Assembly (NCBI GenBank): GCA_963794525.1
Contig: CAWCEC010000004.1
Span: 81,222-145,221 of the forward strand
Direction: 5' to 3'
DNA: 64,000 nucleotides
From: an uncultured Chloroflexia bacterium
GTDB lineage: Bacteria; Chloroflexota; Limnocylindria; Limnocylindrales; CSP1-4
The notes beneath the pieces were generated by a model, which had not been told where the DNA came from, made no database searches, and saw only the letters and a program-made list of their open reading frames with translations. Below, piece by piece: positions 6,147-61,895 of the stretch. How positions within the stretch are numbered: the first letter of the stretch is position 1; the number at the start of each line of letters is the position of its first letter. The position numbers were made by a program, and so were the translations under genes.

Positions 6147-7277
6147 ATGCGGATCGAGGTCGAGGGCCACGCCACGGTCTGGGAAGCGTCGCCTGACGAT
6201 CCGGCGGGCCATGCCTGCGAGCCGCGGATCCTCCGCCGATCGACCGGCGACATCCTGCTCGCCCATCGCGTCGGCACGCGGCGCGAGAGCAACGACGGCC
6301 GGCCACATCTCCTGGAGAGCACCGATGGTGGGCACCGCTGGGCCACGCTCGGTCGTCCCCTCGACGGGCTCGCTGACCATGGCTGGGACCTGCGCGGCGC
6401 CGCGCTCGCCGAGCTGCCCTCGGGCGACCTGCTGACCGTGGTCGTCGCGCTCGACAAGTCCCTCGACCGGCCGACCTACAACCCGGAGACCGAAGGACTG
6501 GTCCCGGTCGCGAACCACATTGCGGTGTCCGCCGACGGGGGTCGAAGCTGGCGGCAGCTCGCCGATCTCGCGGGTGGCCCGGTGCCCCAGACCGCGTCGC
6601 AGGGCTTGCTCGTCCTGCCGGATGGCGACGTCCTGTGCACGTTCGAGACGTTCAAGGAGTACGACGAGCCCGGGACCTGGCGATACCTCGGCGGGCTGCT
6701 GCGCTCGACGGACGGCGGAAGGACCTGGGGCGACAGCGCGATCTCGGCGTCATCGGATCCGGATGGGGACCCGCACGACACCATGTGGTGGGATCCGCGG
6801 ATCGGCCGCCTGGCGTCGGGCGAGCTCGTCCAGTTCATGTACGCCTTCCGGCATCGGTCGCGAACGGAAGGTCCGGTGCACGTGGCATGGAGCCATGACG
6901 ACGGGCGGACGTGGTCGGCGCCGCTGTCAACGGGTCTGCCGGGCCAGGCGAGCTATCCGGTCCCGCTCGAGGACGGACGGCTCGTCCTCCTGCAACAGCG
7001 CCGTGGCGACGAGCAGTCGATCGTCGCCCTGGCGAGCGACGACGACGGCCGGACGTTCGACGCGGGTTCGGAAACGGTGGTGTACCGGCACGAGGCGACG
7101 TCGGCGCCCGGTGCCGACGGGTCCCTGAGCGCCGTCGACTACCTCATGTCGATGGACCGGTTCACCTTCGGCCACCCCTGCGGCGTGGCCACCGGCCCCG
7201 ACGAGGTCCTGGCCATCTGGTACGCGGGTGGGGGCACGCGAACCGCCATCCGGAGCGCCCGCCTGCGCATCAGGTAG
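6147..7277 (+). CDS. BNR/Asp-box beta-propeller (sialidase-fold) protein
   Basis: Five Asp-boxes (STDGGHRW, SADGGRSW, STDGGRTW, SHDDGRTW, SDDDGRTF); no signal peptide. Confidence 0.85.
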   Translation: MRIEVEGHATVWEASPDDPAGHACEPRILRRSTGDILLAHRVGTRRESNDGRPHLLESTDGGHRWATLGRPLDGLADHGWDLRGAALAELPSGDLLTVVVALDKSLDRPTYNPETEGLVPVANHIAVSADGGRSWRQLADLAGGPVPQTASQGLLVLPDGDVLCTFETFKEYDEPGTWRYLGGLLRSTDGGRTWGDSAISASSDPDGDPHDTMWWDPRIGRLASGELVQFMYAFRHRSRTEGPVHVAWSHDDGRTWSAPLSTGLPGQASYPVPLEDGRLVLLQQRRGDEQSIVALASDDDGRTFDAGSETVVYRHEATSAPGADGSLSAVDYLMSMDRFTFGHPCGVATGPDEVLAIWYAGGGTRTAIRSARLRIR

Positions 7278-7310
7278 CGCGCGCGACGGCGTGGTCAGTG
7301 GCTGGCGCGA

Positions 7311-8072
7311 TCAGTGGCCCGCGCGGCCACCCGAGATGTCGAAGACCGCACCGGTGGAGAACGACGCCTCGTCCGAGGCGAGCCAGGCGACCATCGCCGC
7401 GACCTCCTCGGGGCGCCCAAGCCGGCCGATGGGGTGGCGACGGCGAACCTCGTCGATCTCGTCCTCGGGCAGGTGGGACCAGTTCCGGGTCATGATCGAT
7501 CCGGGCGTGATCGCATTGACGAGGATCCCTCGAGGTGCGACCTCGAACGCGAGCGCCTTCGTCAGGCCGATCACGCCGGCCTTTGCCGCCGCATAGGCGA
7601 CCGGGTTGTGTTTGCCTTCCTTGCCGGCGATCGACGAGATGTTGACGATCCGGCCGTAGCCGCGCTCCAGCATCATCGGCAGGACCGCCCGACAGCCGTG
7701 GAAGACGCCGGTCAGGTCGACGTCGATCGTGCGCTGCCAGGTCTCGAGCGGCATCTCCCAGGTCGGGATCAACTCCTCGCCGATCCCGGCGTTGTTGACC
7801 AGGATGTCGATCCGGCCCGCCCACACCGAGACCGCTTCCACCATGGCCTCGACCGATGGGTAGGAGGTCACATCCACGGCCACCGCGAGCGCGACATCAC
7901 CGGACGGGTCGAGCCGGCGGGCGAGCGCTTCGGCGTCATCGAGGGCGAGGTCCGTGACGACGACCCGCAGCCCATCGCGCACGAGTCGCTCGCACATGGC
8001 CGTCCCCAGGGCGCCGGCGGCACCCGTGACGATCGCCACGCGCCTGTCCTCCCCCTGATCCCGCTCCTGCAT
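7311..8072 (-). CDS. SDR family NAD(P)-dependent oxidoreductase
   Basis: TGAAGALG, NNAG, catalytic S...YAAAK, NAITPG, GRLGRPEEVA. Confidence 0.93.
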   Translation of the reverse strand: MQERDQGEDRRVAIVTGAAGALGTAMCERLVRDGLRVVVTDLALDDAEALARRLDPSGDVALAVAVDVTSYPSVEAMVEAVSVWAGRIDILVNNAGIGEELIPTWEMPLETWQRTIDVDLTGVFHGCRAVLPMMLERGYGRIVNISSIAGKEGKHNPVAYAAAKAGVIGLTKALAFEVAPRGILVNAITPGSIMTRNWSHLPEDEIDEVRRRHPIGRLGRPEEVAAMVAWLASDEASFSTGAVFDISGGRAGH

Positions 8073-8137
8073 CCCGCGGAGTGTAAGTCACACTGGACAG
8101 GAGGCGCCCAGTTGCAGTGCTATCCTACCGCTCGCCC

Positions 8138-9250
8138 ATGATCGACCTGCGGTCCGACACCGTGACGCTGCCATCGCCCGAGATGCGGCGCGCGATGGCG
8201 AACGCGGAACTGGGCGACGACGTGTTCGGCGACGACCCGACGGTGCGCGCACTCGAGGAACGCGCCGCCGAGCTGCTCGGCACCGAGGCCGGCCTCCTCG
8301 TGACCAGCGGGACCATGGGCAACCTGGTCGGGCTGATGGCCCACGTGCCGCGTGGCGGCGAGATCATCGGGCCCGCCGAGATCCACACCTTCTCGAGCGA
8401 GGCGGCCGGACATGCCGTCGTGGTCGGCGCGTCGGTCCGCGGCATCCCACCCGCCGATGACGGCACGATCGACCCGGCGGCGATCCGCTCGGCCGTCCGT
8501 GACCCGACGGACGTCCACGAGCCCATCACCGCGCTGATCACGCTCGAGAACACCCATTCGTTGTCGATGGGCCAGCCGCTCACCCCCGCCTACACCAAGA
8601 CGATCGCGTCGGTCGCGCGCGAGATCGGCGTGCCGCTGTTCATCGACGGGGCGCGCCTGTTCAACGCGGCGGTCGCGCTCGGGGTGCCGGGGCGCGACCT
8701 GGTGCCGCCGGGAGCGTCCGCGACGTTCTGCCTGTCCAAGAGCCTGGCCTGCCCCGTGGGCTCGCTGGTGGTCGGCGACGCCGGAGTCATCGCGAGGGCG
8801 CGTCGCGCCCGCAAGCTCGTGGGCGGCGGTATGCGCCAGGCCGGGGTCATCGCGGCGGCCGGTCTGGTCGCCCTCCGGGACGGACCCGCCGGGATGATCG
8901 AGCGGCTCGCCGATGATCACGCCAACGCCCGCCGGCTCGCGGATGCCCTGGCATCCATGCCGGGCGTCACCCGCCTCGACCCGACCAGGGTCAGGACGAA
9001 CTTCGTGCTCTTCGGCCTCGGCGCCCAGTCGTGGCCTGACGACACGGTGGCGCGAGCAGCCGTCCTCCGACAACGGGCCGAGTTCCTGGCCGCGCTCGCC
9101 GACCGCGGGGTCCGGATGATCGAGTACCCGAAGGGCATGGTCCGGGCGATGCCGCACTACGGCGTCGAGTCAGGCGACATCGAGCGCGCCATCACCGCGA
9201 CCCGCGCCACGCTCGCCGACGTGGGCCTGTCGAGCGCCGTTCCCGCCTGA
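8138..9250 (+). CDS. ltaE: Low-specificity L-threonine aldolase
   Basis: IDLRSDTVT, GDDVFGDDPTV, SGTMGN, LENTH, DGARLFNA, CLSK, GGGMRQAG. Confidence 0.9.
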   Translation: MIDLRSDTVTLPSPEMRRAMANAELGDDVFGDDPTVRALEERAAELLGTEAGLLVTSGTMGNLVGLMAHVPRGGEIIGPAEIHTFSSEAAGHAVVVGASVRGIPPADDGTIDPAAIRSAVRDPTDVHEPITALITLENTHSLSMGQPLTPAYTKTIASVAREIGVPLFIDGARLFNAAVALGVPGRDLVPPGASATFCLSKSLACPVGSLVVGDAGVIARARRARKLVGGGMRQAGVIAAAGLVALRDGPAGMIERLADDHANARRLADALASMPGVTRLDPTRVRTNFVLFGLGAQSWPDDTVARAAVLRQRAEFLAALADRGVRMIEYPKGMVRAMPHYGVESGDIERAITATRATLADVGLSSAVPA

Positions 9251-9275: not shown

Positions 9276-9686
9276 CTAGTCGTACCGCCATTGCAGGCGG
9301 GTGGGGGTCACGACGATCAGGACGCGATCCTCCTTGATCTCCTCCCAGTGTCGCTGTGACGCCTCTTCCGTCGGCTCGTACTTGCGGATGAGGTCGAGCG
9401 TCGTGTCCTTGACGTCGCCTTCGATCACCTCGGCGGTGCCGAAGACCTGGACGTAGTTCTCCCGTCGCTTGCCCGCGTCGATGCACAGCGTGATCCGCGG
9501 GTCGCGCTTGAGGTTGCGGACCTTGACGGTCCAGTCGAGCGTGCTGATCCAGAACCGCTCGCCGTCCCACCAGTACCAGTTGGGCGTCAGCTGGGGCGTG
9601 CCGTCGGGCTGGATGGTGGCCACGATCGCGTGGACCTGGGTCCGGAGGAACGCTTCCTTCTCCGGAGTCAGCTCGGCGTCCGTCAC
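9276..9686 (-). CDS. PPOX-class F420-dependent oxidoreductase
   Basis: VATIQPDGTPQLTP.W, KVRNLKRDPRITL; 136 aa; GTG start overlaps the upstream stop. Confidence 0.85.
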   Translation of the reverse strand: MTDAELTPEKEAFLRTQVHAIVATIQPDGTPQLTPNWYWWDGERFWISTLDWTVKVRNLKRDPRITLCIDAGKRRENYVQVFGTAEVIEGDVKDTTLDLIRKYEPTEEASQRHWEEIKEDRVLIVVTPTRLQWRYD

Positions 9687-12107
9687 GCTCCACCGCCGAG
9701 GTCGAGGGCCAGGATCGCGGCCTCCACGATGTGGCCGGCATCGATCCCGCTCGATGCGTACAGGTCGGGGATGGCGCCGGATTGTCCGAACGTGTCGACC
9801 CCGAGCGGCACCACGGGAGCCCCGAATACGCCACCGACGAAGCTGAGGGCGTGCGAGGACGCGTCGGCGACGGTGACGATCGGCGCCCGGCGTTCGTCAG
9901 GCGGGATCAACGTCGCGAGATGGCCGACGTCGTCCGGCCGGCCGGTCCGCAGCGCCTGGAGCCGCCCGCCATGCTGCCCGGCGGCAAGCCGCTCGGCCGA
10001 GGTCACCACGATCAGGTTGGCGGCGATCTCCTCCCGATGCAGGATCCGGACGGCCTCGATCGCCTCCGGCACGATCGAGCCCGCCGCGACGACCTCGACG
10101 GTGGGGCTGCCGGCCGGCAGATCCGCGGAGGCCGCCTCGAGGAGCCGGTAGCCACCCGCGAGGACCGCGTCACGCCAGCCGTCGAGGCCCAGCCGCTCCT
10201 CGATCGGCGCGGCCAGCGCCTGGTCGATGGGGCGCGTGCCGAGCCGCAGGTAGGTGGCGAACCCATCGTGTGGATCGAGACATCCCCGGATGCCCTCGAG
10301 GATCGTCCAGACGACCTCCCGGGCGAACACGGGCTCATAGCCACGCAGCCCGGGCAGCTCGATCCCGAGGGACGGCGTCACCGTGGACTGGTGGGCGCCT
10401 CCCTCCGGCGCGAGGGTCACGCCCGAGGGCGTCCCGACCAGGATGAACCGGGACCGGACGTAGAGCGCGTAGATCAGCGCATCCAGGCCGCGGGCGATGA
10501 ACGGGTCGTAGACCGAGCCGATGGGCACGAGCCGTTCGCCGAACAGCTCGCCGGTCAGGCCGAACTGGCTCAGCCACATGAACAGGTTCATCTCGCTGAT
10601 GCCGAGCTCGATGTGGCGTCCGGTGGGACCCAGGGTCCAATCGAGCGGGCGCTTCTCCTCGGCGAGGTCGGGGCCCGTGTCCGGTGCGAACACCCCGGCA
10701 CGATTGATCCAGCCTCCAAGGTTCGTGGAGACGGCCACGTCCGGTGCCGCGGTGACCAGCCGTGGACCCGTCTCGGCGTCCCGGGCGAGAGCCGCCAGGG
10801 TGTCCCCGAACGTCTGCTGCGTACTCGTTCGGGCCGGGATCCGCACATCGGGCGCGGCCAGGACGGGCATGACCGATGGTGCGATGTCGCGCGACGGGTC
10901 GTCGTATCCGAGCTCCTGCCGGCGCCGCTGCGCCAGCCGTCCTTCGGGCGAGCCCTCGGCGGAATCCCGCCCACGGGTCGGTCGGGTCGGCCCCGAGCGG
11001 CTCGCTCAACGCATCGATCTGTTCCGCGCGGAGGAGGGCGGAATGGTTGACGCTGTCGCCGGCGAAGGGCAGCCGCCAGCCCTTGATGGTGTACGCGAAC
11101 AGCACCGTGGGCCTGCCTCGCTCGCGATCGGCCGCACGCAGCGCTCGATCGAGCACGTCCAGGTCGTGACCGCCCAGGTCGGCGAGCAGCCCCGGGAGCT
11201 CGGGATCGGGCACGTCCGCGACCACACGCGCCAGGGCGTCCCGTCGCGATGGCGCCGCTCCGTCCACCAGGCGGGTCCGCGCCTCGTCGCCGGGCCGCCT
11301 GATCAGCACCTGGTATTCCTCGTTCGGCATGTCGTCGATCCGCTCGCGAAGCGCGTCGCCATCGGGCCGTGCGAAGTGCGCCTCCAGCCGGCGTCCGTAC
11401 TTGGCCTCGATCGCATGCCAGCCCGCCGCCGCGAACATCGCCTCCACCCGACGGATGCGGATCCCCGGAACGACCCGATCGAGACTCTGGCGATTCAGGT
11501 CGACGATCATCGTCACGTTCCCGAGCTCGCCCAGGCCCTCCTCGAGGATCGCCTCCCAGACGTTGCCTTCGTCAAGCTCCGCATCGCCGACCAGGGCCAC
11601 GAACCGCCGATCGGGCTGGCTCGCGACGCTCTCGCCGAAATGCGACCGCAGGTAGCGATCGGCCAGGGCGGCGAACATCGGGGCGACCGCCCCGAGGCCC
11701 ACGGAGCCCGTGGAGAAGTCGACCGGATCGGGATCCTTGGTCCGCGACGGATACGACTGCAGGCCGCCGAAGTCACGCAGCCGAAGGAGCATCGACGGGT
11801 CCAGGTTGCCGAGCAGGTACTGGATCGCGTGGTAGGCCGGCGACGCGTGCGGCTTCACCGCGACCAGGTCGCCGGCTCGCAGCCAGCGGAAGTAGAGCGC
11901 GGTCAGGATCGACACGACCGATGCGCTCGACGCCTGGTGCCCGCCGACCTTGATCCCATCGCGGTTCGGGCGGACGTTGTTGGCCTCGTGGATCATCCGG
12001 ATCGCCAGCCACAACACGCGGCGCGCGATCGCGTCCAGGGCCGGATCGTCGGTCCCACTGGCGGGCGATCGTGTCGGCATGTCGGCGACGGCCACTGGCT
12101 GGGTCAC
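9683..12107 (-). CDS. Pyruvate dehydrogenase E1 (AceE-type, transketolase-like ThDP enzyme); frameshifted near 10960
   Basis: KVGGHQASSAS, LQSYP, STGSVGLG, GDAELDEG, LNRQSLD in one frame; ELGISEMN, YDPF, EGGAHQS, LGVDTFGQSG in another. Confidence 0.85.
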
Positions 12108-12153
12108 TCCCTCTGCGCGACGTGGAGGGTCGTCGCATCGTTCGTCCGGTAAT

Positions 12154-12171
12154 TCGGGACGACAGTCCCGA
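12154..12171. promoter_or_regulatory. Inverted repeat TCGGGAC-N4-GTCCCGA, candidate IclR operator
   Basis: Perfect 7-bp arms in the divergent gap between the E1-like gene and the IclR gene, next to an AT-rich -10-like stretch (CATACT). Confidence 0.5.
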
Positions 12172-12193
12172 TATCCTGATACCATACTGTGCC

Positions 12194-13030
12194 ATGACCG
12201 GCATCGCGGGGTCAACGGCGGACGGACGGCGGGGCGACGCTGCCAGGGGACCGATGGCTCGCTGGGTGCGCGTGCTCGAAGCGTTCGCCGAGCAGGGCGA
12301 ATGGGGCGTCCGCGATCTCGCCCGGTCGAGCGGGATCCCGCGCAGCGCCACCCATCGGATCCTCCACGACATGGCCGGCCTCGGCCTGCTGGCCAACACG
12401 GACGAACCCGGTCGCTTCCGGGTCGGACCGGACCTGGCGCGGATCGGCAGTGGTGTGGCGGCCCACCTCGAGGTGCAGCGCGTCGCCCGGCCGATCCTCG
12501 AGGCGACCGCGGCGGCCATCGGCGAGACGATCGTGCTCGCCGTGTACGACCCGCAGCGTCGCCGATTCTCGGCCGTCGATGCCGTCGAGACCGACCACCC
12601 GATCCGCTACCTGTGGGAGTCGCTCCGGGACTGGAGCGAGCTCCATCTCGGCTCGTCGGGCAAGGGGATCCTGGCGTTCCTGCCGTCCGAGGAGCGGGAC
12701 GCGATCATCGATCGCCTGCCCGATCCGATCCCCGGCCGGCGCCCGATCTCCAAGGCTCGCCTGCGCCGTGAGCTCGATGCGGCCCGACGGCGTGGGTACG
12801 TGGTGAGCCACGGCGAGCGCTACGACGGCGCCGTCGGCATCTCCGCGCCGATCCGCGACGCTCGCGGCCGGATCGTCGGCGACCTCATCGCGACCTGGCC
12901 GGACAACCGGACCAGCGCTGCCAAGGAGCGCCGCGCCGGGTCGACCGTCCGCGAGGCGGCCGACGAGCTCTCGCGTCGGCTTGGTTGGGACGACGGGCGC
13001 AGCGCGGCGCAGCCGCGCCCGCGGCCGTGA
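12194..13030 (+). CDS. IclR family transcriptional regulator
   Basis: HTH GVRDLARSSGIPRSATHRIL; effector domain GETIVL, LHLGSSGKGILAF, GISAPIRD. Confidence 0.93.
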   Translation: MTGIAGSTADGRRGDAARGPMARWVRVLEAFAEQGEWGVRDLARSSGIPRSATHRILHDMAGLGLLANTDEPGRFRVGPDLARIGSGVAAHLEVQRVARPILEATAAAIGETIVLAVYDPQRRRFSAVDAVETDHPIRYLWESLRDWSELHLGSSGKGILAFLPSEERDAIIDRLPDPIPGRRPISKARLRRELDAARRRGYVVSHGERYDGAVGISAPIRDARGRIVGDLIATWPDNRTSAAKERRAGSTVREAADELSRRLGWDDGRSAAQPRPRP

Positions 13031-14046: not shown

Positions 14047-14900
14047 CGACGGTGCTCGACTTCTCGCGGTCCACGATGACGTTCCGGATCGACATCGACA
14101 AGATCCCGCCGCGGACGCTCAGCCACCGGCCGCCCTACCCGATGAACAACGCCCGGGTCGTGCTCGACTGCCGCTGCCGGATCACGGAGCGGACGAGCGG
14201 CCGCACCCACACGATCGTGCTCGGGGCGAGCTGCAAGACGGAACGCGTCGGCGCCGACGCGGACCTGTGGCTGGTGCCGAACGGCGACTTCATCCCGATC
14301 TTCTCCGACGACGAGTTCATGCACATCAAGACGTTCGCGCGGGCGGGCATGGTCTCGCAGCTCGAGTCGCCGGGCTGCGGCGAACAACCCGACCGACTTC
14401 GGGTCCCGATCGAGGGGACCTTCGAGCGGGTCCACCTCGACCTCGTCGAGCGCGAGGGCGAACGGCTGGAGGGTGCCACGGCGATCGTCGAGGCGGTGCT
14501 GGCCAACGACCGCCTGATCGGGATCCATCGCTTCGAGTCGGACCGCTACCGCGTCGAGATCGAATACCCGGTCAAGACCATCAATGCCAACGAGCGCGAG
14601 TGGGTCTACCAGACCGATACCGGTCCGATCCTCTTCCCGGATCTCGACTGCGATCCGGCCGAGCTCCTGTCGCGGCTGGAGCTCGCCTTCACGGCCGCCA
14701 ACGATCCGAGCTGGGCGGAATTCATCGTCCGCGTTCCGACGCGGATCGCCGACGACGTGGACGTCTACCACTACTCGAAGGCCGTCCGCCTGGACGACAT
14801 CGTCAACGAGTTCTACCGGATCAGCGAGGACGGTCCGGTCACCTCTCGTCGCGTCGAGTTGCCGGCCCGCGCATCGGGCGCAGCAGGAGGATCCGCATGA
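14043..14900 (+). CDS. Hypothetical protein (285 aa)
   Basis: Codon usage like its neighbours; GTGA and ATGA overlaps with both flanking genes; no motif I recognise. Confidence 0.8.
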   Translation: MTTVLDFSRSTMTFRIDIDKIPPRTLSHRPPYPMNNARVVLDCRCRITERTSGRTHTIVLGASCKTERVGADADLWLVPNGDFIPIFSDDEFMHIKTFARAGMVSQLESPGCGEQPDRLRVPIEGTFERVHLDLVEREGERLEGATAIVEAVLANDRLIGIHRFESDRYRVEIEYPVKTINANEREWVYQTDTGPILFPDLDCDPAELLSRLELAFTAANDPSWAEFIVRVPTRIADDVDVYHYSKAVRLDDIVNEFYRISEDGPVTSRRVELPARASGAAGGSA

Positions 14901-16024
14901 AGATCACCGGCATCGAGTCCCGGGTCATCGGCTACGACATCGCCGAGGCATGGGGCGAAGGCGTCATGCCGGAGGCCATCACCTCGACCTGGTACGAGTA
15001 CTCGTTCGACACGTTCCAGACCGACGAGGGCGTCGTCGGCTACACGATGCAGAACGCCAACCTGCGCGATGGCGCCGCCGTCGTCCACGTGCTCCACGAC
15101 CTGTATGCGCCGCAGGTCATCGGCGAGGACCCGCTCCAAAGCGAGGCGCTGTGGACCAAGCTGCGGCGGCTGAATCGTCACGCCTACAACCTGTCGGACT
15201 CGATCGCCGGGGCCATCGATGTCGCGGTCTGGGACATCCGGGGCAAGGTGGCGGGCCTGCCGATCGCCACGATGCTGGGGCTGGCGCGCGAGAGGATCCC
15301 GGCCTACGCCACGGCCCGCAACGTCGAGCCCAGCCCGGAAGACGTCTTCAAGGAGGCGCAGGAGCGCAAGGCCCAGGGCTACCACGCGTTCAAGATCCAG
15401 TTCTGGGACGGCCTCGATCGCGACGTCCCGCGTTTCCGGGCGGCGCGCGAGGCGGTCGGCGACGACTACCCGCTGATGCAGGATGCGGCCGGCATGTACA
15501 GCTACACCCAGGCGATCGAGGCCGGCAGGGTCCTCGGCGATCTCGGCTACACCTGGTTCGAGGAGCCGATCCCCGACCGCAACCTGTTCCAGCTCAAGCG
15601 CTTGACCGACCAGCTCGCGGTGCCGATCCTCGCCGGCGAGACGTCACGCGTCCACGAGCTCGCCGAAGGCATGCGGATGGGCGCGTTCGACATCGCCCGC
15701 GGCGACGTGCTGATGAAGGAGGGCATCACCGGTCTGCGCAAGGCGGTCGGGATGGCCGAACTCCTGGGCTTCGACCTCGAGGTCCACGGCATCAACCAGC
15801 CGTTGCTGGATGTCGCGAACCTCCACGTGGCGCTGTCGATGCCGAACTGCCGCTGGTCCGAGACGTTCCACCCGATCTACTACCGGGGCCTCAAGGGCGG
15901 CCCGCTCGACATCGATGCGGAAGGGTACAAGCACCTGCCACCCGGTCCGGGCCTCGGCGTCGAGCTCGACTGGGACTGGATCGACGACAACACGCAGGAG
16001 GTCGTGCGCACCCCGGCGGCCTAG
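14897..16024 (+). CDS. Mandelate racemase/muconate lactonizing enzyme (enolase superfamily)
   Basis: AGGAGG RBS; AIDVAVWDIRGK, FKIQ, metal ligands QD/FEEP/GE, EVH, PGPGLGVELD. Confidence 0.92.
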   Translation: MKITGIESRVIGYDIAEAWGEGVMPEAITSTWYEYSFDTFQTDEGVVGYTMQNANLRDGAAVVHVLHDLYAPQVIGEDPLQSEALWTKLRRLNRHAYNLSDSIAGAIDVAVWDIRGKVAGLPIATMLGLARERIPAYATARNVEPSPEDVFKEAQERKAQGYHAFKIQFWDGLDRDVPRFRAAREAVGDDYPLMQDAAGMYSYTQAIEAGRVLGDLGYTWFEEPIPDRNLFQLKRLTDQLAVPILAGETSRVHELAEGMRMGAFDIARGDVLMKEGITGLRKAVGMAELLGFDLEVHGINQPLLDVANLHVALSMPNCRWSETFHPIYYRGLKGGPLDIDAEGYKHLPPGPGLGVELDWDWIDDNTQEVVRTPAA

Positions 16025-23137: not shown

Positions 23138-23141
23138 GGTT

Positions 23142-47462: not shown

Positions 47463-48626
<1,164 letters not shown>

Positions 48627-49925: not shown

Positions 49926-51072
49926 TTGCGCATCGTCGACCGCTCGGTCCTCAGCGCGGCTGTACCGGGAACCTCCCGGGCCGCCGCGACCTTCCCGACA
50001 TTCACCGTCCTGGCGGACGGCAGCCTGCTCGCGACCTACAGCATCGGATCGACCAAGGACAGCGACGACCTGACGGTCGAGCTTCGGCGGTCGATCGACG
50101 GCGGGGCGACGTGGGACGAGCCGCGCGCCCCGTTCGAGACGACCCTGGACGGGCCGGCGCGGCTCGCTCAAGTTCGCCCCGATCACGAGGCTCGATGGCG
50201 ATCGGCTGATCATCGTGGCGTTGTGGATCGATCGCGAGGCGTTCCCGGGTCAGCCGCTCTTCAACCCCGAGACCGAGGGGTGCCTGCCGATGGCGATCCT
50301 CGTCGCCGACTCGGCCGACGCCGGGGAGACCTGGTCATCGTGGCGACGGGTGGCGATGCCGGCCGACGTCGGTCCGCCGAGCCTGACCAACGCGATCGTC
50401 CGCTTCCCGAGCGGCCGTCTCCTGCTGAGCGTCGAGACCAACAAGGAGTACCTCGACACCTCACGCTGGTTCCAGCGTGTCGTCCACCTCTGGTCGGATG
50501 ACGACGGCGTCACGTGGTCGGCGCCGACGACGGTCGTGGCCGACCCGACCGGTCGGATCGGGACCTGGGACCAACGAGGGGCCGTGGCGGCCGATGGGCG
50601 CCTCGTCAGCTTCGCCTGGATCTACGACTTCGAGGCGGTCGCCTACCTGGACATCCAGCGGCGGATCAGCGCCGACGAGGGCCGTTCCTTCGGGGAGCCG
50701 GTCGACCTCGGCTTCGCCGACCAGCCTGGCCACCCGGCCATCCTGCCGGACGGCCGCGTCGTGCTCGCCTGGGTCGATCGGTTCGGCTCAGGCTCGATCC
50801 GGGCTCGCCTCGCAGCCTCGACCGAGGCACCGTTCGAGCCGGACACCGAGATCGTCCTGTTCGATGCCGCCGCCGATGCGACGAGCGCCGCCCGGACCGG
50901 GTCGTCGGCGACCGCCACGACAGGCGATGCGCTGGAGCAGATGCAGACCTGGTCGTACGGTCTGTGTTACGCCGACGCATTACCGGATGGCGACGTCGGG
51001 GTCGTGCACTATGCCCCGGGAACCGCCGGCGGGATCGAGATCCGCTGGATCCGCCTGGCGGTCGATGGCTGA
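49926..51072 (+). CDS. BNR/Asp-box sialidase-fold protein; frameshifted near 50165
   Basis: SIDGGATW, SADAGETW, SDDDGVTW, SADEGRSF; NPETEG and WDQR shared with the paralogs. Confidence 0.85.
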
Positions 51073-51087: not shown

Positions 51088-52143
51088 ATGACCGACGAGG
51101 CGGACCCGCTGGCAAACGCGACGCTCGCCGAGATGGAGACGTTCGCGGCCGCGCTGCTCCCCACCTACGCGCTCGACTACTACGCCTCGGGCGCGCGTGA
51201 CGAGCAGACGTTCCGGGGCAATCTCGCGGCGTGGGGCCGCTGGTGGCTGGTCCCGCGGATGCTCAACGACGTGTCGGCGGTGTCGCTCGCGACGACCGTG
51301 CTCGGCCAGCCGATCGCGCTGCCGATCCTGGTCGCGCCGATGGCGTCGCAGCGGCTCGCCCATCCCGACGGCGAGCTTGCCACGGCCCGCGCGGCGGCAG
51401 GGGCGGGCACGATCATGGTGGTGTCCACGAGCACGATGGTGCCGATCGAGGAGATCGGGGCGGTGCCGGATGTGGCCTTCTGGTTCCAGCTCTACCCGTT
51501 CCCGGACTTCGAGGAGACGCTCGCCATGATCGAGCGGGCCGTCGCAGCCGGGGCGAAGGCGATCTGCCTGACGGTCGACGTGGCCAGCCATATCGATCCG
51601 AAGCGGCGGCCGCGAGGCGGCCTGGTCGCGCCGGCCTGGGTGGAGTACCCGATGCATCCACCCAAGGCCGCGGACACGCTTGCCGCGCTGGACTGGCCCT
51701 ATCTCGAGCGTTTGCGCGCGCGCGTCAGCGTTCCGATCGTCCTCAAGGGGATCCTGCATCCCGACGATGCCCGGGCGGCCGCCGATGTGGGTGTCCCCGC
51801 CATCGTCGTGAGCAACCATGGCGGGCGCACCCTCGATGGGGCCGTCACGACCGCGGAGATCCTGCCCGAGATCGCCGATGCGGTGGGCGACCGGGTGGAG
51901 CTGCTCGTCGACGGCGGCATCCGGCGGGGCGTCGACGTGATCCGTGCGCTCGCACTCGGTGCCCGCGCCGTGCTGGTGGGCCGCCCGTTCCTGTGGGGGC
52001 TGGCCATCGCGGGAGAAGCCGGCCAGCGGCGCGTCTTCCGGACCCTGCGCGATGAGTTGGAGCAGGACGCCAGGCACTGCGGCATCGCCGATATCACCGC
52101 CGTGCCCCGAGACCTCGTCCGGATCAGTCGCCTCGGCATCTGA
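51088..52143 (+). CDS. FMN-dependent alpha-hydroxy-acid oxidase
   Basis: DYYASGA, HPDGE, WFQLY, LTVD, LKGI, SNHGGR, DGGIRRG, GRP. Confidence 0.93.
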   Translation: MTDEADPLANATLAEMETFAAALLPTYALDYYASGARDEQTFRGNLAAWGRWWLVPRMLNDVSAVSLATTVLGQPIALPILVAPMASQRLAHPDGELATARAAAGAGTIMVVSTSTMVPIEEIGAVPDVAFWFQLYPFPDFEETLAMIERAVAAGAKAICLTVDVASHIDPKRRPRGGLVAPAWVEYPMHPPKAADTLAALDWPYLERLRARVSVPIVLKGILHPDDARAAADVGVPAIVVSNHGGRTLDGAVTTAEILPEIADAVGDRVELLVDGGIRRGVDVIRALALGARAVLVGRPFLWGLAIAGEAGQRRVFRTLRDELEQDARHCGIADITAVPRDLVRISRLGI

Positions 52144-52144
52144 C

Positions 52145-53237
52145 GTGCGAATCACGGATATCCGGCTCGACAGCCTGTCGATCGGCCCGACCCTGGTCCA
52201 GGTCGTCACCGACGAGGGCGTCGTCGGCCTGTCCGAGCTCGGCTGGCACGACCCCGCGATCTTCCGCGGCCACCTGGAGCGTGTCATCAAGCCGCAACTC
52301 ATCGGCGCGGACCCGCTGGCGCCGGGCCGCATCCGCGAGCGCCTGGTCAATGGCACGCGCGAGCTCCCGTACCCGACCACCAGTGCCTTCGCCGGCGTGA
52401 TCGACATCTGCCTGTGGGACCTCATGGGCAAGCGCGCCGGTCTGCCGCTCTACGCCCTGCTGGGCGGCGCCGCCCGGACCGACATCCCGCTGTACTGGAG
52501 CGTCGGCGCCGGCTTCGCCAAGACGGTCGAGGGGATGGTCGCCGACGTGCTGCGCGGGCGGAGCCAGGGGTTCGAGGCGTTCAAGATCCGGATGGACTGG
52601 GGTCCGCTCCAGCGCGACGTGGACCCGGCCAAGGACATCGAGATGGCTCGTCGGTGCCGGGAGGCGCTCGGCCCGGACGTCTGGATCGGCTTCGACGCCA
52701 ACCGCGGCTATTCGGTCGGGACGGCGATCCGCGTCGGGCGCCAGCTGGAGGCGCTCGGGTTCGCACATTTCGAGGAACCGCTCCCGGAGCATGACCTGGC
52801 CGGCCTGCGCGAGGTCTGCCGCGCCCTGGACATCCCGGTCTCGACCGGCGAGCAGCTCCATGACCGCTGGGGATTCCGGGATCTCCTCGCCGCGGCGGAC
52901 CCGGACATCCTCCAGCCGGACATCGTCGACGCGGGCGGGATCAGCGAGGTGATGCGCATCTTCGAGCTCGCCGCGAGCCACGCCAAGCCGGTCATGCCGC
53001 ACAGCCCGGCGGCCGGGATCCTCGCGACCGCCAGCCTGCACGCCTATGCGACCGTGGCGTCGACGCAGGCGCCGCACGAGTACTCCGTCGAGTACGGCCC
53101 GCCGCCCGAACGGATCGCCGAGCTGTTCGAGGAGCCCATCGAGCCGCAGGCCGGTCGGATCCGGCTGCCCGACCGGCCGGGCCTGGGCCTGGTGCTCGAT
53201 GAAGCCGGCGGTCGCGCGGCTTCGCGTCGACGCCTAG
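52145..53237 (+). CDS. MR/MLE enolase-superfamily protein; frameshift near the C-terminus (~53205)
   Basis: TDEGVVG, IDICLWDLMGK, FKIR, FDAN, FEEP, TGE, QPD, MPH, PGLG. Confidence 0.92.
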
Positions 53238-53260: not shown

Positions 53261-54868
53261 TCAGGCGAGCAGGACGCGACCGGGGCGGACCTCGTCCGGC
53301 TGCCGGCCGTCGACGACGACGCGTCGACCGGCCACCATCACGTGCTGGACACCGACGGGCGGGAGGGTCGGCTCGCGGAACGTCGCGCCATCAGTGATGG
53401 TCGCGGGATCGAAGACGACGAGGTCCGCGATCGCCCCCTCGACGATCCGCCCGCGATCGACCAGTCGCGCGCGGTCGGCCGGCGCCGACGTCGACATCCG
53501 GATCGCCCGTTCGAGGGTCAGCAGGCCGTGGGCTCGCACGTACGACCCCAGCAGGCGCGGGTAGCACCCGAACGATCGCGGGTGGGGCCGGCCGGCGCTC
53601 GACGGTCCGTCCGGGTCCATCGCCAGGCCGTCCGAGCCGATCGACGTGAGCGGGTGGGTCAGGACCGCCCGCAGGTCGTCCTCGGATCGACCGTACGCCA
53701 CCATCTGGATCCGGTTGTCGCTTCGAGCGATGAGGTCGAGGGCCGCCTCGCCGGGATCCATCGACCATCGTGCGGCGACGGCCTCCACGGTCAAGCCGAG
53801 CGTCTCTTCGAGATCCGGCTCGGTCGATGCCACCTCGATCTCGTCCCAACCGAAGAACAGGCTGTCGCGCCAATCGGCGTGGATCCTGGCGCGTTCGGTC
53901 GGGCTGGCCAGCCGCGCGACGATGGCGGACGGACCGCCTGCCTGCGCCCACTCGGGCAGCAGCTGGGACAGGTTGGCGCTTCCGGCGATGTACGGATAGA
54001 TGTCGATGCCGACGTCGACACCGTCGTCGTGGGCACGTTCGATCCGTTCGAGCGCGCGGGGAACGGCGCCCCAGTTGCGCCGGCCGGCGACGGCGAGGTG
54101 CGAGATCTGCAGCCGGCAGGCACTCAGTCGCGCGATCGTGAGTGCCTCGTCCACCGCATCGAGCAGGTGGTCGCTGTAGTTGCGCATGTGGATCGCGAAC
54201 AGACGGTCATGCCGTGCGACGGCGCGGCCGATGGCGACGAGCTCATCCCGGTCGGCGGACATCGCCGGCGGGTACATGAGCCCGGTGGACACGCCGATCG
54301 CCCCCGCATCCAGGCAGTCGTCGATGGCCGCGACCAGCGCCGAGCGCTCGCCGGCATCGAGCGGGCGCGCGGCTTCTCCTGCCACCGAGATCCGGAGTGG
54401 CAGGTGGCCGATGAGTGGCGCCGTGTTCAGCGCAAGGCCCTCCCGCTCCAGCGCCGCGGCGTAACCGCCGAGGTCGGTCCAGTGCCACCGCACGCCGGGG
54501 TCGGGATCGATCGTCGCGTTCGCGGCCCGGATCTCGGACGCGGCCATGGCCGGGAGCGGCACGGCGCCCATCCCGCAGTTGCCGTTGACCTCGGTGGTCA
54601 CGCCCTGGGCGACCTTGCTTCGAGCGCGCCCGTCGCTGAGGAGTGTCAGGTCCGAATGGCTATGGAGGTCGACCCATCCCGGCGCCACGACCAGGCCGGT
54701 CGCATCCACCCGTTCGAGACCGTCCGTCCCTGCCTCGGCCAGGTCGCCGATCGCGTCGATCCGGCCGGCACGGACGGTCACGTCGGCACGCCGACCGGCG
54801 GAGCCGGTCCCATCGATCACGGTCCCGCCGACGATCACGAGGTCCGCATCGGCGCCGCCGGTCACCAT
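53261..54868 (-). CDS. N-acyl-D-amino-acid deacylase (D-aminoacylase)
   Basis: GGTVIDGTG, APGWVDLHSHSD, QGVTTEVNGNCG, STGLMYPP, HMR, ISH, IGSDG, HPRSFG, GAIADLVVFDP. Confidence 0.93.
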   Translation of the reverse strand: MVTGGADADLVIVGGTVIDGTGSAGRRADVTVRAGRIDAIGDLAEAGTDGLERVDATGLVVAPGWVDLHSHSDLTLLSDGRARSKVAQGVTTEVNGNCGMGAVPLPAMAASEIRAANATIDPDPGVRWHWTDLGGYAAALEREGLALNTAPLIGHLPLRISVAGEAARPLDAGERSALVAAIDDCLDAGAIGVSTGLMYPPAMSADRDELVAIGRAVARHDRLFAIHMRNYSDHLLDAVDEALTIARLSACRLQISHLAVAGRRNWGAVPRALERIERAHDDGVDVGIDIYPYIAGSANLSQLLPEWAQAGGPSAIVARLASPTERARIHADWRDSLFFGWDEIEVASTEPDLEETLGLTVEAVAARWSMDPGEAALDLIARSDNRIQMVAYGRSEDDLRAVLTHPLTSIGSDGLAMDPDGPSSAGRPHPRSFGCYPRLLGSYVRAHGLLTLERAIRMSTSAPADRARLVDRGRIVEGAIADLVVFDPATITDGATFREPTLPPVGVQHVMVAGRRVVVDGRQPDEVRPGRVLLA

Positions 54869-56389
54869 CCGAAGAGCCCGGCCGCGTTCGTCCAGAAGAC
54901 GCGATCCATCGCCGCGGCCGGGATGCCGGCATCGCGGTACGTCCCGAGCACGAATGCCGGCTCCAGCAGCGGTGCGTCGCTTCCCCACAGCAGCCGCTCC
55001 GGCCCGGCGATCGCGACGGCCTCGCGGACCGTCGGGAGGTGCGCGAAGCTGCTGGAGAGTTCCAGGTAGACGTTGTCGTGCGCGGCGACGAGGCGAGCGC
55101 CTTCGACGCTCGGGGTGCCGAGCCCACCGTGCGCGATCACGATCGGCAGCCGTGGATGCCGTCGAGCGATGTCCCCGAGCGCGACGTCCCAGCCGTCGCC
55201 CATGTTGTGGATCTTGACCGGGCGGCCGAATCGGGCGAGCAGGTCGAACAGCTCGGTCATGGCTCGCGAGGCGGTGGGCGTCCCGGTCCATTCGCCGTGG
55301 ACCTTGACGCCCAGGACGCCCGGTGCGTCCAGGTAGCGGCGCAGCTGGTCCGCGGTCGTCTCGAGGTCGGTGGGATCGGCGACGACGTACCCGTAGAGCC
55401 CGTCGCTGCCGTGAGCGGCTGCGGCGCGCGCGGCTTGCTCGTTGCCGCGCTCGGGATCTCCGAAGATGCGCGAGCGCGGCGGACGCCACGGCCCGCTGCG
55501 TCGGCGCGACGCGCAGTCCGTCGAGCAACCGGTCGTCGGCAACCTGCGGGACGTCGAAGTCGAGCGGCCCGAAGTGGCTGTGCACGTCGCAGGCACGGGC
55601 CGGGCCATCCGGCTCGGTCAGGTCGATCGGACCGTCCGGAAGCCCGAACAAACGGATCGCGTTGTGTCCGAGGATCGCGCGCTTGGCATCGGCCGGGATC
55701 GCCGCCGCGAGGACGGCGCCGATCGGCGACGCGGCGGCCCGGCGGGGGCTGCCGGTCCCGAGCAGGACGCGTTCGGCTCCGATCGTCCGCACGGCGGTCT
55801 CGATCGCTCGGAAGTGGGCCAGCCCGCTGGTCTCGAGATGGAGATGCGGATAGCGGACGGCCGCCGCCAGGTCGTCGACGATGTGGCTGTAGTGGGCGCC
55901 CAGGAGCACCACCGGGATCCCGAGATCGGCGGTCGCCGCCCCGATCACGCTGGCCGCGCCGGGACGGTCCACCGGGATCAGGAGTGGCAGCCCGGCAAGG
56001 CCGATCGCCCGCAGGACGTCGCCGACCGCATCGGACGGCGGCCCATCACCGGCCCAGCCCTCGAGGCGATAGCCGACCGCCCCTGATCGCTTCGCCTCGT
56101 CGACCCGCTGCGGACCTGCCCCGCTCTGCCGTGTCCCGATGACGGCGATCGCCCGGAGCCCGTTGGCGGGCTCTGCCGCCGCCTCCAGCGCCAGCCGGTT
56201 GCCGGTCGGCCCGTGGGCCCAGGTGGCGAGGAGCGATGACGCCAGCGACAGCCGGATGCCGTGGGCAAGGCGCTCCGAGACGAGGGATCCGAGTGCGGCC
56301 CCGGCCGTTCCGGCGGTGCCGTGGTCCGGCCCGAATACCGCGTGGACGTCGATGAAGCCGCGCGTTGATCCGCTGCTGGGGTCGGCCAC
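54862..56389 (-). CDS. Two-domain amidohydrolase (tandem Amidohydro_2-like barrels); frameshifted near 55480
   Basis: N-domain DVHAVFG...HLETS...GAERVLLGT.SP; C-domain DVHSHFG...VKVH...KIH...IAH...GPERLLWGSDAP. Confidence 0.83.
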
Positions 56390-58694: not shown

Positions 58695-59486
58695 GCGCGA
58701 CCCCTGTCGCTCGGCCCTCTCGCCCCATCGCGCTTGCGTCGTGGGGCGCCGAGACCGGCCAGCATCGTCGGGACCTCGAGGACGTGTTGGCGCGCCAGCG
58801 TGGCGGCATAGTCCGGGTCTCCGTCGCGAAGGGCGTCCACGAGCACCGTGTGGGAGCCGGCGGCATTCTTGAGGAAGTACCTGGCGGTCGACCCGGGACG
58901 GTCGAGGGCCTGGTACGAGCGCACCCTGACCAGCCCATCGAGGCCCGACCAGATGTGGCGCAGCAGCGTCATGCCGGACCACTCCACGATCAGGCCGTGG
59001 AATCGCAGGTCGATACTCCGCGATCGCCCCCACCTCCTGGCTCCTGATCGCCCCCCGCATCTCCTCGATAAGTGCCTCGAGCCGTGCCAGCTCCGGCTCG
59101 CCGATCACGTCGACGGCGGCCGCGGTCGCCCGTCCCTCGATCACCGCGCGGAGCTCGTAGATCGCATCGATCTCGGCTTCGGGCAGCCCGACCACGACGG
59201 CCCCCCGGTGCGGGAAGATCTCGACCAGCCCCTCCTGCTCGAGATGGCGGATCGCCTCCCGGACGGGTGCGCGGCTGACGCCCATCCGCTCGGCGATGTC
59301 GGCCTCGAGGAGGCGTGATCCCGCCGTGATCTCATTGGCGAGGATCGCGCTGCGCAGGGCGCTCAGGACCTCCTGGCGGAGCACACGAGGCTGGATCCGC
59401 TGGAGATTGAGCCCGGCCCCGGGCTGGCCCGGTTCCGTCACCGAGCTGTCGTCGCGAGGGGGTTCATCGCGCCGTCCCGTCGTCAT
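58691..59486 (-). CDS. GntR (FCD) transcriptional regulator; frameshifted near 59010
   Basis: RVLRQEVL..LR, IAERMGVSRAPVREAIRHLEQEGLVE.FPHRGAVVVG; close paralog of 26588-27271. Confidence 0.9.
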
Positions 59487-60771
59487 CGAGCCCGCCCGCC
59501 CGCGGCCGCCGGGATCGGCATCGCCTGCGGGCCGACCGGCGTCCCCGCCTGGAGCACGAGGCCCGGCGAGCGCAACGCGGAGATGGACGCCAGCGGGTCC
59601 GCATCGACGACCAGCAGGTCGGCGATGTGGCCCACTTCGAGGAGTCCGACGTCGGACAGCCCGAAGAGTCGTGCCGTGACGGTGGTCGCCGATGCGAGTG
59701 CTGCCTGCGGGTCCATGCCGTGTGCAACGTACAGCTCGAGCTCGCCGACCATGTCGCCCACGGGAACCAGCGGGGCACCTCCGTCGTTGCCCGCCGCGAT
59801 GCGGACGCCGGCCTTGATGGCGGCCTGCAGGAAGACGACCAGGCTGTCGTGGAGGGCCTCGCACTGCTCGACCACGAAGTCGGGGATCCCCGCAGCGACC
59901 CCATGGTCGATGATCCGCCGGTCCGACAGGATCGTGGGGACGAGCGCCGTGCCGCGCTCCAGCATCAGGTCGATCGCATCCTGGTCGCCGCCGTGGCCGT
60001 GCTCCACCGAGTCGACCCCCGCGCGGACGGCATTGAGGATGCCGATCCGGCTTTCGGCGTGTGCGGCGACGGGCACGCCGCGTTTGTGGGCTTCCTCGAC
60101 GGCCGCAGCCATCTCGTCCACGGTCAGCTGCGGCTGGCCGGCCTGCCGTCCGCCGGTCATCATGCCGCCCGTCGCCATCAGCTTGATCGACCCGGCACCG
60201 GCCCGCAGGTTCTCTCGGGTCGCCCGTCGCACGGCGTCGGGGCCGTCCGCCTCGAGACCGATCCACCAGCCGTGGCCGCCGGTCATCGTCACGACTCGAC
60301 CGCTCGGGATCACCCGTGGGCCCGGGATCTCACCGGCGTCGACGAGTCTCGCGAGCTCGATGTCGATCCCGTCCGGGCCGCCGACGTCGCGGATCGTCGT
60401 CACGCCCGAGCGGAGCGTCGCGTCGAGGCGAGCGGCGGTGCGGATGACGGTCTCGCTCCGGTTCTCGGACGCGCAGGGCCGCCTCGGGGTCGGGCCCGCC
60501 GTCAAGGCAGACGTGCGCGTGGGCGTTCATCAGACCAGGCACGACCCACCGGCCCGTCGATCTCGATGACCTCCGCTCCGGGCGCCTCGAGGTCGCGACC
60601 GATCGTGTCGATGCGCCCGTTCCGGATCAGCAGGTCGGTCGCTTCCGGTCGCGCGCCGCGGGCATCGACCAGGTGACCGCCGCGAAGCAGCAGCCCGCCG
60701 TGCCGCTCGTGATCGCGCGGCCCGCGCAGCCCGTCGCCGAGGTCCGTCCCGTTCGATCCGCCGCCGATCAC
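59483..60771 (-). CDS. Metal-dependent amidohydrolase (Xaa-Pro dipeptidase/Sgx-like); frameshifted near 60545 and 60470
   Basis: PGLMNAHAH, GVTTIRDVG, TGGHG, IKLMATGG, AAHA, VEHG, GNDGG, ADLLVV..DP. Confidence 0.88.
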
Positions 60772-61895
60772 GGCCGGATGCGCGCCCAGCGCGCACTCCG
60801 GGCGTCACCGCTGCCACCGTAGAACGTGACGAGCACCTGCCCGTCGGCCAGCAGGGCGCCGCGGGCATGCCCGAACTGCCATGCCCCCATGTCGTTCCAG
60901 AACTCGCCCTGCGCTCGCGGACCGCCCGCACCCGGTTCCGTGCCGGCGTCGCTTGCCCAGACGACCACCTCGTCGGCCGGATCCCAGGTCCGCCCGAAGT
61001 CGTGGCTCAGGGCGGCGCGGATGCCGGGTGGGTCGGCCCGGTGCGAGTAGACCGCCAGGAGCCGGTCACCACCCAGCGCGATGGGCTGGCAATGCTGGCC
61101 GGCCAGACCGGTGCCGACGGGCGACGTCCAGGTGCGACCATCGGCCGTCCCCCACGCGACATGGATGTCGACGTCCTGACCGGCCGCCGGATCGTGGGTC
61201 CAGAACATGTTGACCAGTCGGCCATCCGTCGGGTGCGTGTCCAGGCGCTGGTCCCAGTAGAACAGGGCATCGTCCGGATGGTGGGCGACGAGGACGTCCG
61301 TCTGCCATGTCGCACCCTCGTCGGTCGACAGGCGCAGCCAGGCGGCCGGCTTCCCGGGCGCCGGATCGTCGCGCTCCTTCCAGTGCTCGAACGGCTGGGC
61401 GAGCGTCCCATCCGACAGGCGCAGCAGCGGGCCCGTGGTCGACGCCCCGGGATGCGGACCGAGGTCGATGCGTCGACGCTGCGGCCAGCTCCGGCCGCCG
61501 TCGGTCGAGACCAGGTGGTATGCCCGCATCCCCAGGAGCCCTTGCGTCTCGGGGTGGACCCACGGCTGCGTCGGGTCGGTCCGGTCCGTCCAGAGCACCG
61601 ACGCGGTGAGCTCGCCGGGCGTCAGCTCGGCGATGTACCAGCCCCGGGTCTCACCGGGCCAGTCCTCCCACACCCGCTCGGACAGGCCCAGGAACCGAAG
61701 CTCCCACGTGTCACCCGCGTCGACCGACGCGAAGATGGCGGTCTGGCCGTCGGGACCCTCGCGATCGGTCCCGAGGCGGCACGTGACCAGCACCGAATCG
61801 TCCGCCAGCCGGATGGCGGACGTCGCCGATGCCGAACGCAAGTTGATCGGGGCCGTCTGGGCGTCCCAGATCACGCCGGAGGCCAGGACGTCCAT
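60768..61895 (-). CDS. BNR/Asp-box sialidase-fold protein
   Basis: SVDAGDTW, STDGGRSW, STDEGATW, TADGRTW, SHDFGRTW; HPETQG, WDQR, MGAWQFGH; GAGGA RBS. Confidence 0.87.
   Translation of the reverse strand: MDVLASGVIWDAQTAPINLRSASATSAIRLADDSVLVTCRLGTDREGPDGQTAIFASVDAGDTWELRFLGLSERVWEDWPGETRGWYIAELTPGELTASVLWTDRTDPTQPWVHPETQGLLGMRAYHLVSTDGGRSWPQRRRIDLGPHPGASTTGPLLRLSDGTLAQPFEHWKERDDPAPGKPAAWLRLSTDEGATWQTDVLVAHHPDDALFYWDQRLDTHPTDGRLVNMFWTHDPAAGQDVDIHVAWGTADGRTWTSPVGTGLAGQHCQPIALGGDRLLAVYSHRADPPGIRAALSHDFGRTWDPADEVVVWASDAGTEPGAGGPRAQGEFWNDMGAWQFGHARGALLADGQVLVTFYGGSGDARSARWARIRP

Follow-up and report, generated by a model that had tools for sequence, protein, structure and literature searches.

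Three genes with a sialidase fold lie in the 64,000-nucleotide stretch of DNA from an uncultured Chloroflexia bacterium analysed here (the window; C4:81222-145221 of a 3.17 Mb assembly that comprises 6 contigs and is 80% complete), and they raise the question of whether they encode sialidases or enzymes of another kind. Sialidases of glycoside hydrolase (GH) family 33 use the arginine of an RIP motif, an arginine triad and a tyrosine nucleophile. The answer that we favour, with a probability of about 0.45, is that the three genes, here called paralog 1 (protein P0001), paralog 2 (P0002) and paralog 3, represent a distinct, uncharacterised clade of cytoplasmic enzymes, which would combine a carboxylate clamp with acid/base chemistry on small imported conjugates.

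All three proteins exceed the curated gathering threshold of the Pfam family BNR_2 (PF13088; 31.4 bits; scores in Table 1) and are thus members of the sialidase-like superfamily. P0001 aligns with the other two at 34% identity (E 6e-48) and 32% identity (E 2e-23). An initial annotation of the window had described six motifs common to the three proteins, and the translations bear this out: (N/H)PET(E/Q)G, E-x-x-K-E, W-D-(P/Q)-R, G-x-x-x-Q, a late Arg and M-x-x-(W/F)-x-(F/Y)-G occur in this order in each, an agreement far beyond chance. The Asp-boxes it reported are likewise found in all three, five in each intact protein and four clear ones in paralog 3. A whole-genome profile search added two more full-length relatives (C4:61567-62706 and C2:666916-668238) and one remote paralog (C4:156112-157245), in which most of the signature is missing. 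G023, a genome of the same genus, has intact copies of all five paralogs.

Among the three genes first counted, those at 6147 and 60768 are intact open reading frames (ORFs), whereas the one at 49926 is interrupted by a single additional base. Under translation table 11 paralog 3 is not a single ORF: translation from the TTG at 49926 yields the N-terminal part, and the C-terminal part is encoded in the frame 50074..51072. The +1 frame change lies near 50150 in a short G/C run, where the DNA alignment has GGGCCGG in the window and GGGCGG in its counterpart. In two genomes of the same genus (G023 and G019), the ortholog has both parts in a single frame. Contigs from soil sequencing runs (one in X1, two in X4) lack one base at 50150, and the same contigs are one base shorter than the window at 49203 as well, the point at which the Gfo/Idh/MocA gene upstream is split; they derive from relatives rather than from the same strain, one of them, for example, showing 51 differences in 755 bases. 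Additionally, between 53.2 and 64 kb six other genes are frame-changed relative to the intact G023 proteins, which they match at 67-88% identity (AH3, D-Thr-aldolase-like, AH1, GntR, M20, which changes frame twice, and Amidohydro_2). Because the orthologs are intact, the related contigs are free of the extra base and six nearby genes are also frame-changed, the break in paralog 3 is most likely an assembly (base-calling) indel error rather than gene decay. That paralog 3, or even all three genes, are decaying pseudogenes or ORF artefacts would fit the broken frame as it stands, but these same observations speak against it, as do the two intact copies and their hundreds of homologs, and we regard it as very improbable.

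P0001 and P0002 each have hundreds of homologs, with best identities of 91% and 90%, respectively, which are named 'hypothetical', 'BNR repeat-like' or 'exo-alpha-sialidase' in their sources. A profile built from 57 members retrieves 344 representative clusters at E ≤ 1e-30 and 3441 at E ≤ 1e-10. Matches at E ≤ 1e-40 occur in at least 9 of 301 Chloroflexota genomes, a lower bound since six candidates were scored per genome; the named relatives of the studied genes are metagenome-assembled genomes (MAGs) of Chloroflexota, and the clade occurs in soil, freshwater and marine metagenomes. No NCBIfam model scores above its cut-off for any of the three proteins: P0001 matches only the F510_1955 glycosylhydrolase model (28.5 bits, cut-off 175), and P0002 and paralog 3 have no match at all. 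The ESM Atlas returns generic 'BNR repeat-like' clusters only. Literature searches on cytoplasmic or non-sialidase BNR_2 proteins, on 5HX0/Dfer_1899 and on clusters of BNR and amidohydrolase genes found nothing on this clade. Together, these searches of Pfam, NCBIfam and the ESM Atlas agree with the earlier proposal of a distinct, uncharacterised clade with a sialidase fold, the only curated family that claims its members being the generic BNR_2. A 'BNR repeat' protein described in 10.1101/072470 was considered as a relative and rejected; it is Ycf48-like and unrelated. Fusions confined to single clusters join the propeller to a YhcH/YjgK/YiaL domain, to an Orn/Arg decarboxylase-like domain or to barstar. 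The first of these, P0387 (548 aa), carries the YhcH/YjgK/YiaL (DUF386) domain at its N-terminus behind a lipoprotein-like signal, and is among the few members whose N-terminal extension could hold a signal.

AlphaFold models of the two intact proteins are confident six-bladed Asp-box propellers, with a predicted local distance difference test score (pLDDT) of 95.5 and a predicted template modelling score (pTM) of 0.93 for P0001, and of 93.3 and 0.92 for P0002. The N-terminal strand closes blade 6 and the five Asp-boxes sit at the C-D turns of blades 1-5. The protein start is itself a propeller strand (residues 3-12 in P0001 and 2-10 in P0002), and 108 of 116 family members start within 5 residues of the profile start; the 116 sequences, on which all residue counts below are based, comprise 114 of 150 listed representatives (the 36 shorter than 330 aa were dropped) together with P0001 and P0002. 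The absence of a signal peptide noted in the initial annotation is thus upheld, and since the N-terminus is a propeller strand and members begin at the profile start, we propose that the proteins are cytoplasmic.

The combined AlphaFold and Foldseek check placed both models closest to 5HX0 (Dfer_1899 of Dyadobacter fermentans, a structural-genomics entry), which is the best structure match (VIA; Z 37.0 over 332 residues and Z 34.4 over 330; Foldseek E 1.6e-19) as well as the best PDB sequence match (profile E 1.3e-16). GH33 sialidases follow at Z about 30-34 and GH93 at Z 31.8 and 31.5, and all else scores Z ≤ 27. The family shares with 5HX0 the F-P-S start of blade 1, an R..R/K pair after strand 1B and the arginine equivalent to R286, but identity is only 19-21%, and in the alignment 5HX0 lacks E-x-x-K and W-D-x-R, has His at the family's Q267 and reads G-Y-P where the family has G-H/L-P. 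A literature search found no paper that mentions 5HX0. The GH33 exo-alpha-sialidases (Micromonospora viridifaciens 1EUR; NanA 2VVZ) resemble the family in the six-bladed Asp-box fold (more than 300 residues aligned at Z 32-34), in five Asp-boxes at equivalent C-D turns, in an arginine ending strand 5B and in an acid on strand 4A; they differ in sequence (12-18% identity), and the family has neither their signal peptide nor their extra domains. The GH93 exo-alpha-L-1,5-arabinanase Abnx of Penicillium chrysogenum (3A72) equals GH33 in fold similarity, differs in being a secreted fungal enzyme at 12-15% identity, and shows that the same propeller supports chemistry on sugars without a carboxylate. 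Judged from the models, the family fold is as close to the enzymes of clan GH-E as to anything solved.

Next, we compared the GH33 catalytic set with the family. Whole-protein HMMER alignments to sialidases slip by one blade, with the Asp-boxes dominating the score, and were not used; residues were mapped by strand topology, by the global alignment to 1EUR and, for blade 1, by in-register HMMER alignments. The global alignment (VIA) places residues 4-376 of the P0001 model on residues 49-399 of the 1EUR chain (311 residues, root-mean-square deviation 2.7, Z 32.9), and this, the Asp-boxes at the same turns and the in-register blade-1 alignments justify a blade-by-blade equivalence. The first triad arginine, that of the RIP motif, is not conserved. 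The earlier statement that the motif is missing holds as worded for two of the three proteins; P0001 reads C-E-P-R-I in this region, yet the in-register alignment puts the sialidase R-I-P on C24-E25-P26, so that the arginine aligns with Cys24. Across the family, Arg does not rank in the top five residues at position 24, F-P-S is the usual reading of positions 25-27, and R27 occurs in 8/116. The second triad arginine, at the end of strand 4B, is replaced by Asp at position 235 in 82/116, with Arg found only in the clade of P0001. The third is kept as R286 at the end of strand 5B, 11 residues ahead of the Ser of the fifth Asp-box (8 in 1EUR). The tyrosine nucleophile is not conserved either: the start of blade 6 (341-344) reads F-G-(H/L/A)-P, Tyr is not a common residue at any of positions 342-344, and a blade 5-6 profile searched against the PDB found only 5HX0, its G-Y-P aligned to G-H-P, and no sialidase. 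In line with the initial annotation, the GH33 catalytic set is not conserved. On these alignments the family appears to keep only the third arginine of the sialidase triad, and it may also keep the strand-4A acid and the loop Asp. D216, on strand 4A, is the tentative equivalent of the Glu that sialidases have on that strand; D50, tentatively the equivalent of the sialidase acid/base Asp, lies in the 1B-1C loop that carries it, an imprecisely aligned region in which D219 of the P. gingivalis enzyme falls 4 positions off. Within the 17-member clade of P0001, R27 is invariant and R235 nearly so, and both may matter for specificity.

A different set of residues is conserved throughout the family. 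The most conserved are R286 (111/116), Q267 (109/116), G342 (108/116) and G266 (105/116), followed by E167 (96/116), G117 (95/116), D216 (94/116, with Glu in 14 more), H245 (91/116) and W215 (90/116), and then by R218 (86/116, with Lys in 13 more), D103 (86/116), T115 (85/116), K170 (84/116, with Arg in 9 more) and D50 (76/116). The E-x-x-K-E motif, present in all three window proteins, is shortened by these counts, its final Glu not being conserved family-wide. In the P0001 model, the DSSP elements place every conserved polar residue in a B-C loop, on an inner A strand or at the C-terminal end of a B strand. This would set them on the side of the propeller away from the Asp-box turns, the side that holds the active site in GH33 enzymes, and they may form one pocket.

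We propose that this pocket-face set, E167-x-x-K170, W215-D216-x-R218, G266-Q267, R286, D103 and D50, constitutes the working site. R286, the surviving triad arginine, would clamp the carboxylate of the substrate with the help of R218 and K170, and E167, D216 and D103 would cleave or rearrange a C-O or C-N linkage through general acid/base catalysis, with no covalent tyrosyl intermediate. On this view, every paralog would act on small imported conjugates within a catabolic cassette of its own, and its product would pass to the neighbouring enzymes. The gathering of conserved acids from different blades on one face could alternatively suggest metal-dependent propeller hydrolases of the lactonase or esterase type, in which E167, D216, D103 and D50 bind a central metal. 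Six-bladed, metal-dependent hydrolases do appear among the lower structure matches (Drp35, Z 21.9; SMP-30-like lactonase, Z 21.4), and an island rich in dehydrogenases and acid-sugar dehydratase-like enolases would need a lactonase. These matches, however, rank far below GH33 and GH93 (Z 32-34), three conserved basic residues (R218, K170 and R286) stand among the acids, and we know of no Asp-box propellers of this type that act as lactonases. The window already holds an Amidohydro_2 gene, and that family includes sugar lactonases. We therefore see only a small chance for a metal enzyme.

A more direct challenge to our preferred mechanism comes from GH181. Amuc_1547 of Akkermansia muciniphila is a six-bladed Asp-box propeller sialidase that is active although it lacks both the Arg triad and the Tyr; it has two Arg and a Gln, with His-Gln replacing the Tyr (R234, R305, Q367, H349 and Q350), and carries a linker and a domain resembling a carbohydrate-binding module (CBM) after the propeller (PMC12018670). 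Because this enzyme works without them, loss of the RIP arginine and the tyrosine does not exclude sialidase activity. The window proteins could thus be true glycosidases of sugars resembling sialic acid (nonulosonic or other 2-keto-3-deoxy acids) that act on imported oligosaccharides with a non-canonical catalytic set. Like Amuc_1547, the family departs from the GH33 set and has a His close to where the Tyr was lost, a site which the G-Y-P of 5HX0 against the family's G-H/L-P makes recognisable; R286 is kept, strand 4A carries an acid, and Arg27 and Arg235 could rebuild a triad in the clade of P0001. One member is fused to a YhcH/YjgK/YiaL domain, whose family includes an E. coli nan operon gene. 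On the other hand, position 343 is His in only 30/116 and is followed by Pro in 97/116, where Amuc_1547 has Gln, and the window proteins are bare propellers of 375-376 aa that end with the propeller, without the linker and CBM-like domain reported for the GH181 enzyme. No NanA-, NanK- or NanE-type genes flank any of the three in the Pfam annotation of the window, the neighbours being amidohydrolases, pyridoxal-phosphate (PLP) enzymes and dehydrogenases. Amuc_1547 is not among the 34 PDB matches at E ≤ 1 (profile A6) nor among the structure matches listed, which is not evidence against kinship. Taken as a whole, we consider a sialic-acid-type glycosidase rather unlikely.

Each paralog lies in its own conserved cassette (Table 1). 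For paralog 1, the gene pair upstream on the same strand, encoding a PLP decarboxylase-like enzyme and a DMFA2_C protein, recurs in 10 of the 12 ortholog loci that retain at least 3.3 kb of upstream sequence, and the DMFA2_C stop at 6144 is 3 nt ahead of the paralog 1 ATG at 6147. Genes for a major facilitator superfamily (MFS) transporter and for luciferase-like proteins also recur near its orthologs. The DMFA2_C ortholog in locus L008 carries an additional Laminin_G_3 domain, and the NHL-repeat protein of the window is a second, unrelated propeller in this cassette. In three Chloroflexota MAG loci (L010, L011 and L012), distant P0001 relatives stand amid two or three further BNR_2 paralogs and several luciferase-like monooxygenases, along with a phosphotriesterase-family gene and a peptide/opine-type ATP-binding cassette (ABC) transporter.

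The order of paralog 3, the flavin mononucleotide (FMN)-dependent dehydrogenase and the enolase-superfamily gene is conserved in G023. Paralog 2 is followed by an Amidohydro_1 gene, whose nearest PDB relative is the L-Arg carboxypeptidase Cc2672 (8e-58), in 20 of 51 non-duplicate metagenome loci (15 adjacent, 5 after an enolase gene); among the 36 loci that extend 300 nt or more downstream it is found in 17, often with overlapping stop and start. Divergent from paralog 2, in 12/51 loci, runs a D-threonine-aldolase-like gene with a D-aminoacylase-like gene behind it. The aldolase-like protein has D-threonine or D-3-hydroxyaspartate aldolases as its nearest solved relatives (D-threonine aldolase 7dib, 2e-68). 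In another Chloroflexota genus, a family member (L049; G331:C41) lies beside hydantoinase A/B, M81 (MlrC-like) peptidase, enolase-superfamily and GH42 beta-galactosidase genes.

Table 1. Positions in the window of the three paralogs, their neighbours and other genes named in the text
Feature	Position	Strand	Basis or remark
NHL-repeat propeller protein	1646-2704	+	Weak ScyF-like NCBIfam match; same operon-like row as paralog 1
PLP decarboxylase-like gene	2715-3944	+	Pfam; NCBIfam MfnA-like, 237 bits, below cut-off
DMFA2_C protein (N,N-dimethylformamidase large-subunit-like), 732 aa	3946-6144	+	Pfam; no NCBIfam match
Paralog 1 (P0001, 376 aa), full signature	6147-7277	+	Intact; Pfam BNR_2 57.7 bits
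Short-chain dehydrogenase/reductase (SDR)	7311-8072	-	Pfam; recurs beside paralog 1 orthologs
GntG-family PLP aldolase	8117-9250	+	NCBIfam GntG, 386 bits (cut-off 230); recurs beside paralog 1 orthologs
MR_MLE ORFs	14897-16024, 22559-23752, 24165-25394, 27427-28368, 46308-47462, 47459-48172, 52145-53206		Pfam
Sugar-type ABC transporter operon (SBP_bac_1, two permeases, MalK-like ATPase)	39185-43700	+	Within the lowest-G+C region of the window
Gfo/Idh/MocA oxidoreductase, split near 49203	48974-49901	+	Pfam on both pieces; upstream of paralog 3
Paralog 3, TTG start, frame-broken	49926-51072	+	BNR_2 38.3 bits (C-terminal part)
FMN-dependent alpha-hydroxy-acid dehydrogenase	51088-52143	+	Pfam; downstream of paralog 3
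Enolase-superfamily gene	52145-about 53206	+	Pfam; downstream of paralog 3
Amidohydro_2 gene	54862-55608		Pfam
Amidohydro_1 (carboxypeptidase or prolidase type), frame-broken relative to G023	59483-60557	-	Pfam; directly downstream of paralog 2
Paralog 2 (P0002, 375 aa), full signature	60768-61895	-	Intact; Pfam BNR_2 50.4 bits
D-threonine-aldolase-like PLP enzyme, frame-broken	about 61964-63131	+	Pfam, tblastn against G023; divergent from paralog 2
D-aminoacylase-like amidohydrolase	63137-window end (64000)	+	Pfam; PDB D-aminoacylase 1m7j, 3e-80

This close arrangement, with stop and start overlapping or within tens of bases in many loci (6144/6147 in the window), would also suit non-catalytic binding or scaffold subunits of the translationally coupled enzymes, paralog 2 pairing with Amidohydro_1 and paralog 1 with the DMFase-like protein. 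Inactive proteins with a sialidase fold do exist. Such a role is nevertheless quite improbable in our view: the charged pocket-face set is conserved over 116 divergent members, as is typical of catalysis, the partner differs by paralog, and many relatives have no Amidohydro_1 partner.

As for substrates, the initial annotation had suggested small imported compounds. The neighbourhoods suggest catabolism of amides, D-amino acids, beta-hydroxy-amino acids and hydroxy acids no less than that of sugar acids. In the ong pathway, a D-aminoacylase-family enzyme and a D-amino-acid deaminase process an oxidised amino sugar (PMC9537276). By that analogy, a sugar-acid reading of D-aminoacylase-type cassettes is possible. 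The oxidised-chitin (ong) pathway itself was rejected for the paralog 2 cassette, since its D-aminoacylase-like protein is closer to classical D-aminoacylase (3e-80) than to PpOngB (1e-47) and its PLP neighbour is nearest to D-threonine aldolases; the analogy is kept as a lead only. A bolder version of the clamp and acid/base proposal, which we find unlikely in its full detail, holds that the clade is a new intracellular enzyme family on the clan GH-E scaffold that opens conjugates of an acidic sugar or hydroxy acid with D- or beta-hydroxy-amino acids or short peptides, again by acid/base chemistry and without a tyrosyl intermediate. Candidates would be muropeptide-like fragments, oxidised amino-sugar acids and depsipeptide-type natural products, and the products would be substrates for the D-aminoacylase, D-threonine-aldolase-like, carboxypeptidase-type amidohydrolase and hydroxy-acid dehydrogenase neighbours. 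The clade of P0001, with arginines regained at 27 and 235, would then be a specificity variant linked to the DMFase-like amidase.

Several observations weigh against our preference for a distinct acid/base enzyme clade. The closest solved structure, 5HX0, is of unknown function and has none to transfer; fold similarity in itself says nothing of function, and some proteins with the sialidase fold have no enzymatic activity. The placement of the conserved residues in one pocket is a prediction from strand topology. Of the catalytic residues assigned to the Micromonospora enzyme, the Glu is corroborated as the residue altered in the mutant 2bzd sequence. The YhcH/YjgK/YiaL fusion in P0387 and the GH181 precedent point back to sialic-acid-like substrates. 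Finally, the neighbourhoods are heterogeneous, and relatives at 54% identity or less lack the amidohydrolase cassette.

The surrounding window is a dense catabolic island. Enolase-superfamily (MR_MLE) domains occur in seven ORFs, and there are three Gfo/Idh/MocA genes, two FMN dehydrogenases and several amidohydrolases. With seven enolase-superfamily ORFs against three of the propeller genes, and with the paralogs in different cassettes, the suggestion that the propellers are the signature enzyme of the island is not supported. The G+C content is ~70%, with the lowest stretch (0.65) at 40-42 kb. Further split genes lie at 9683-12215, 22559-23752, 27427-28368, 35010-35786 and 47459-48172, and several ORFs hold only half a domain. 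The widespread frame changes look like indel error in the assembly, and the gene models of this genome should be used with caution.

Thousands of bacterial proteins are automatically annotated as 'exo-alpha-sialidase' or 'sialidase family protein' from their Asp-boxes alone, and this clade would show that part of such annotation is wrong. For experimental work it provides a defined target: its residue set is clear enough for mutagenesis, and two of its gene cassettes, both tightly conserved, hint at possible substrates. If an activity is found, it would represent new chemistry for the sialidase propeller and would fill a step in the poorly understood catabolic islands of abundant uncultured soil Chloroflexota.

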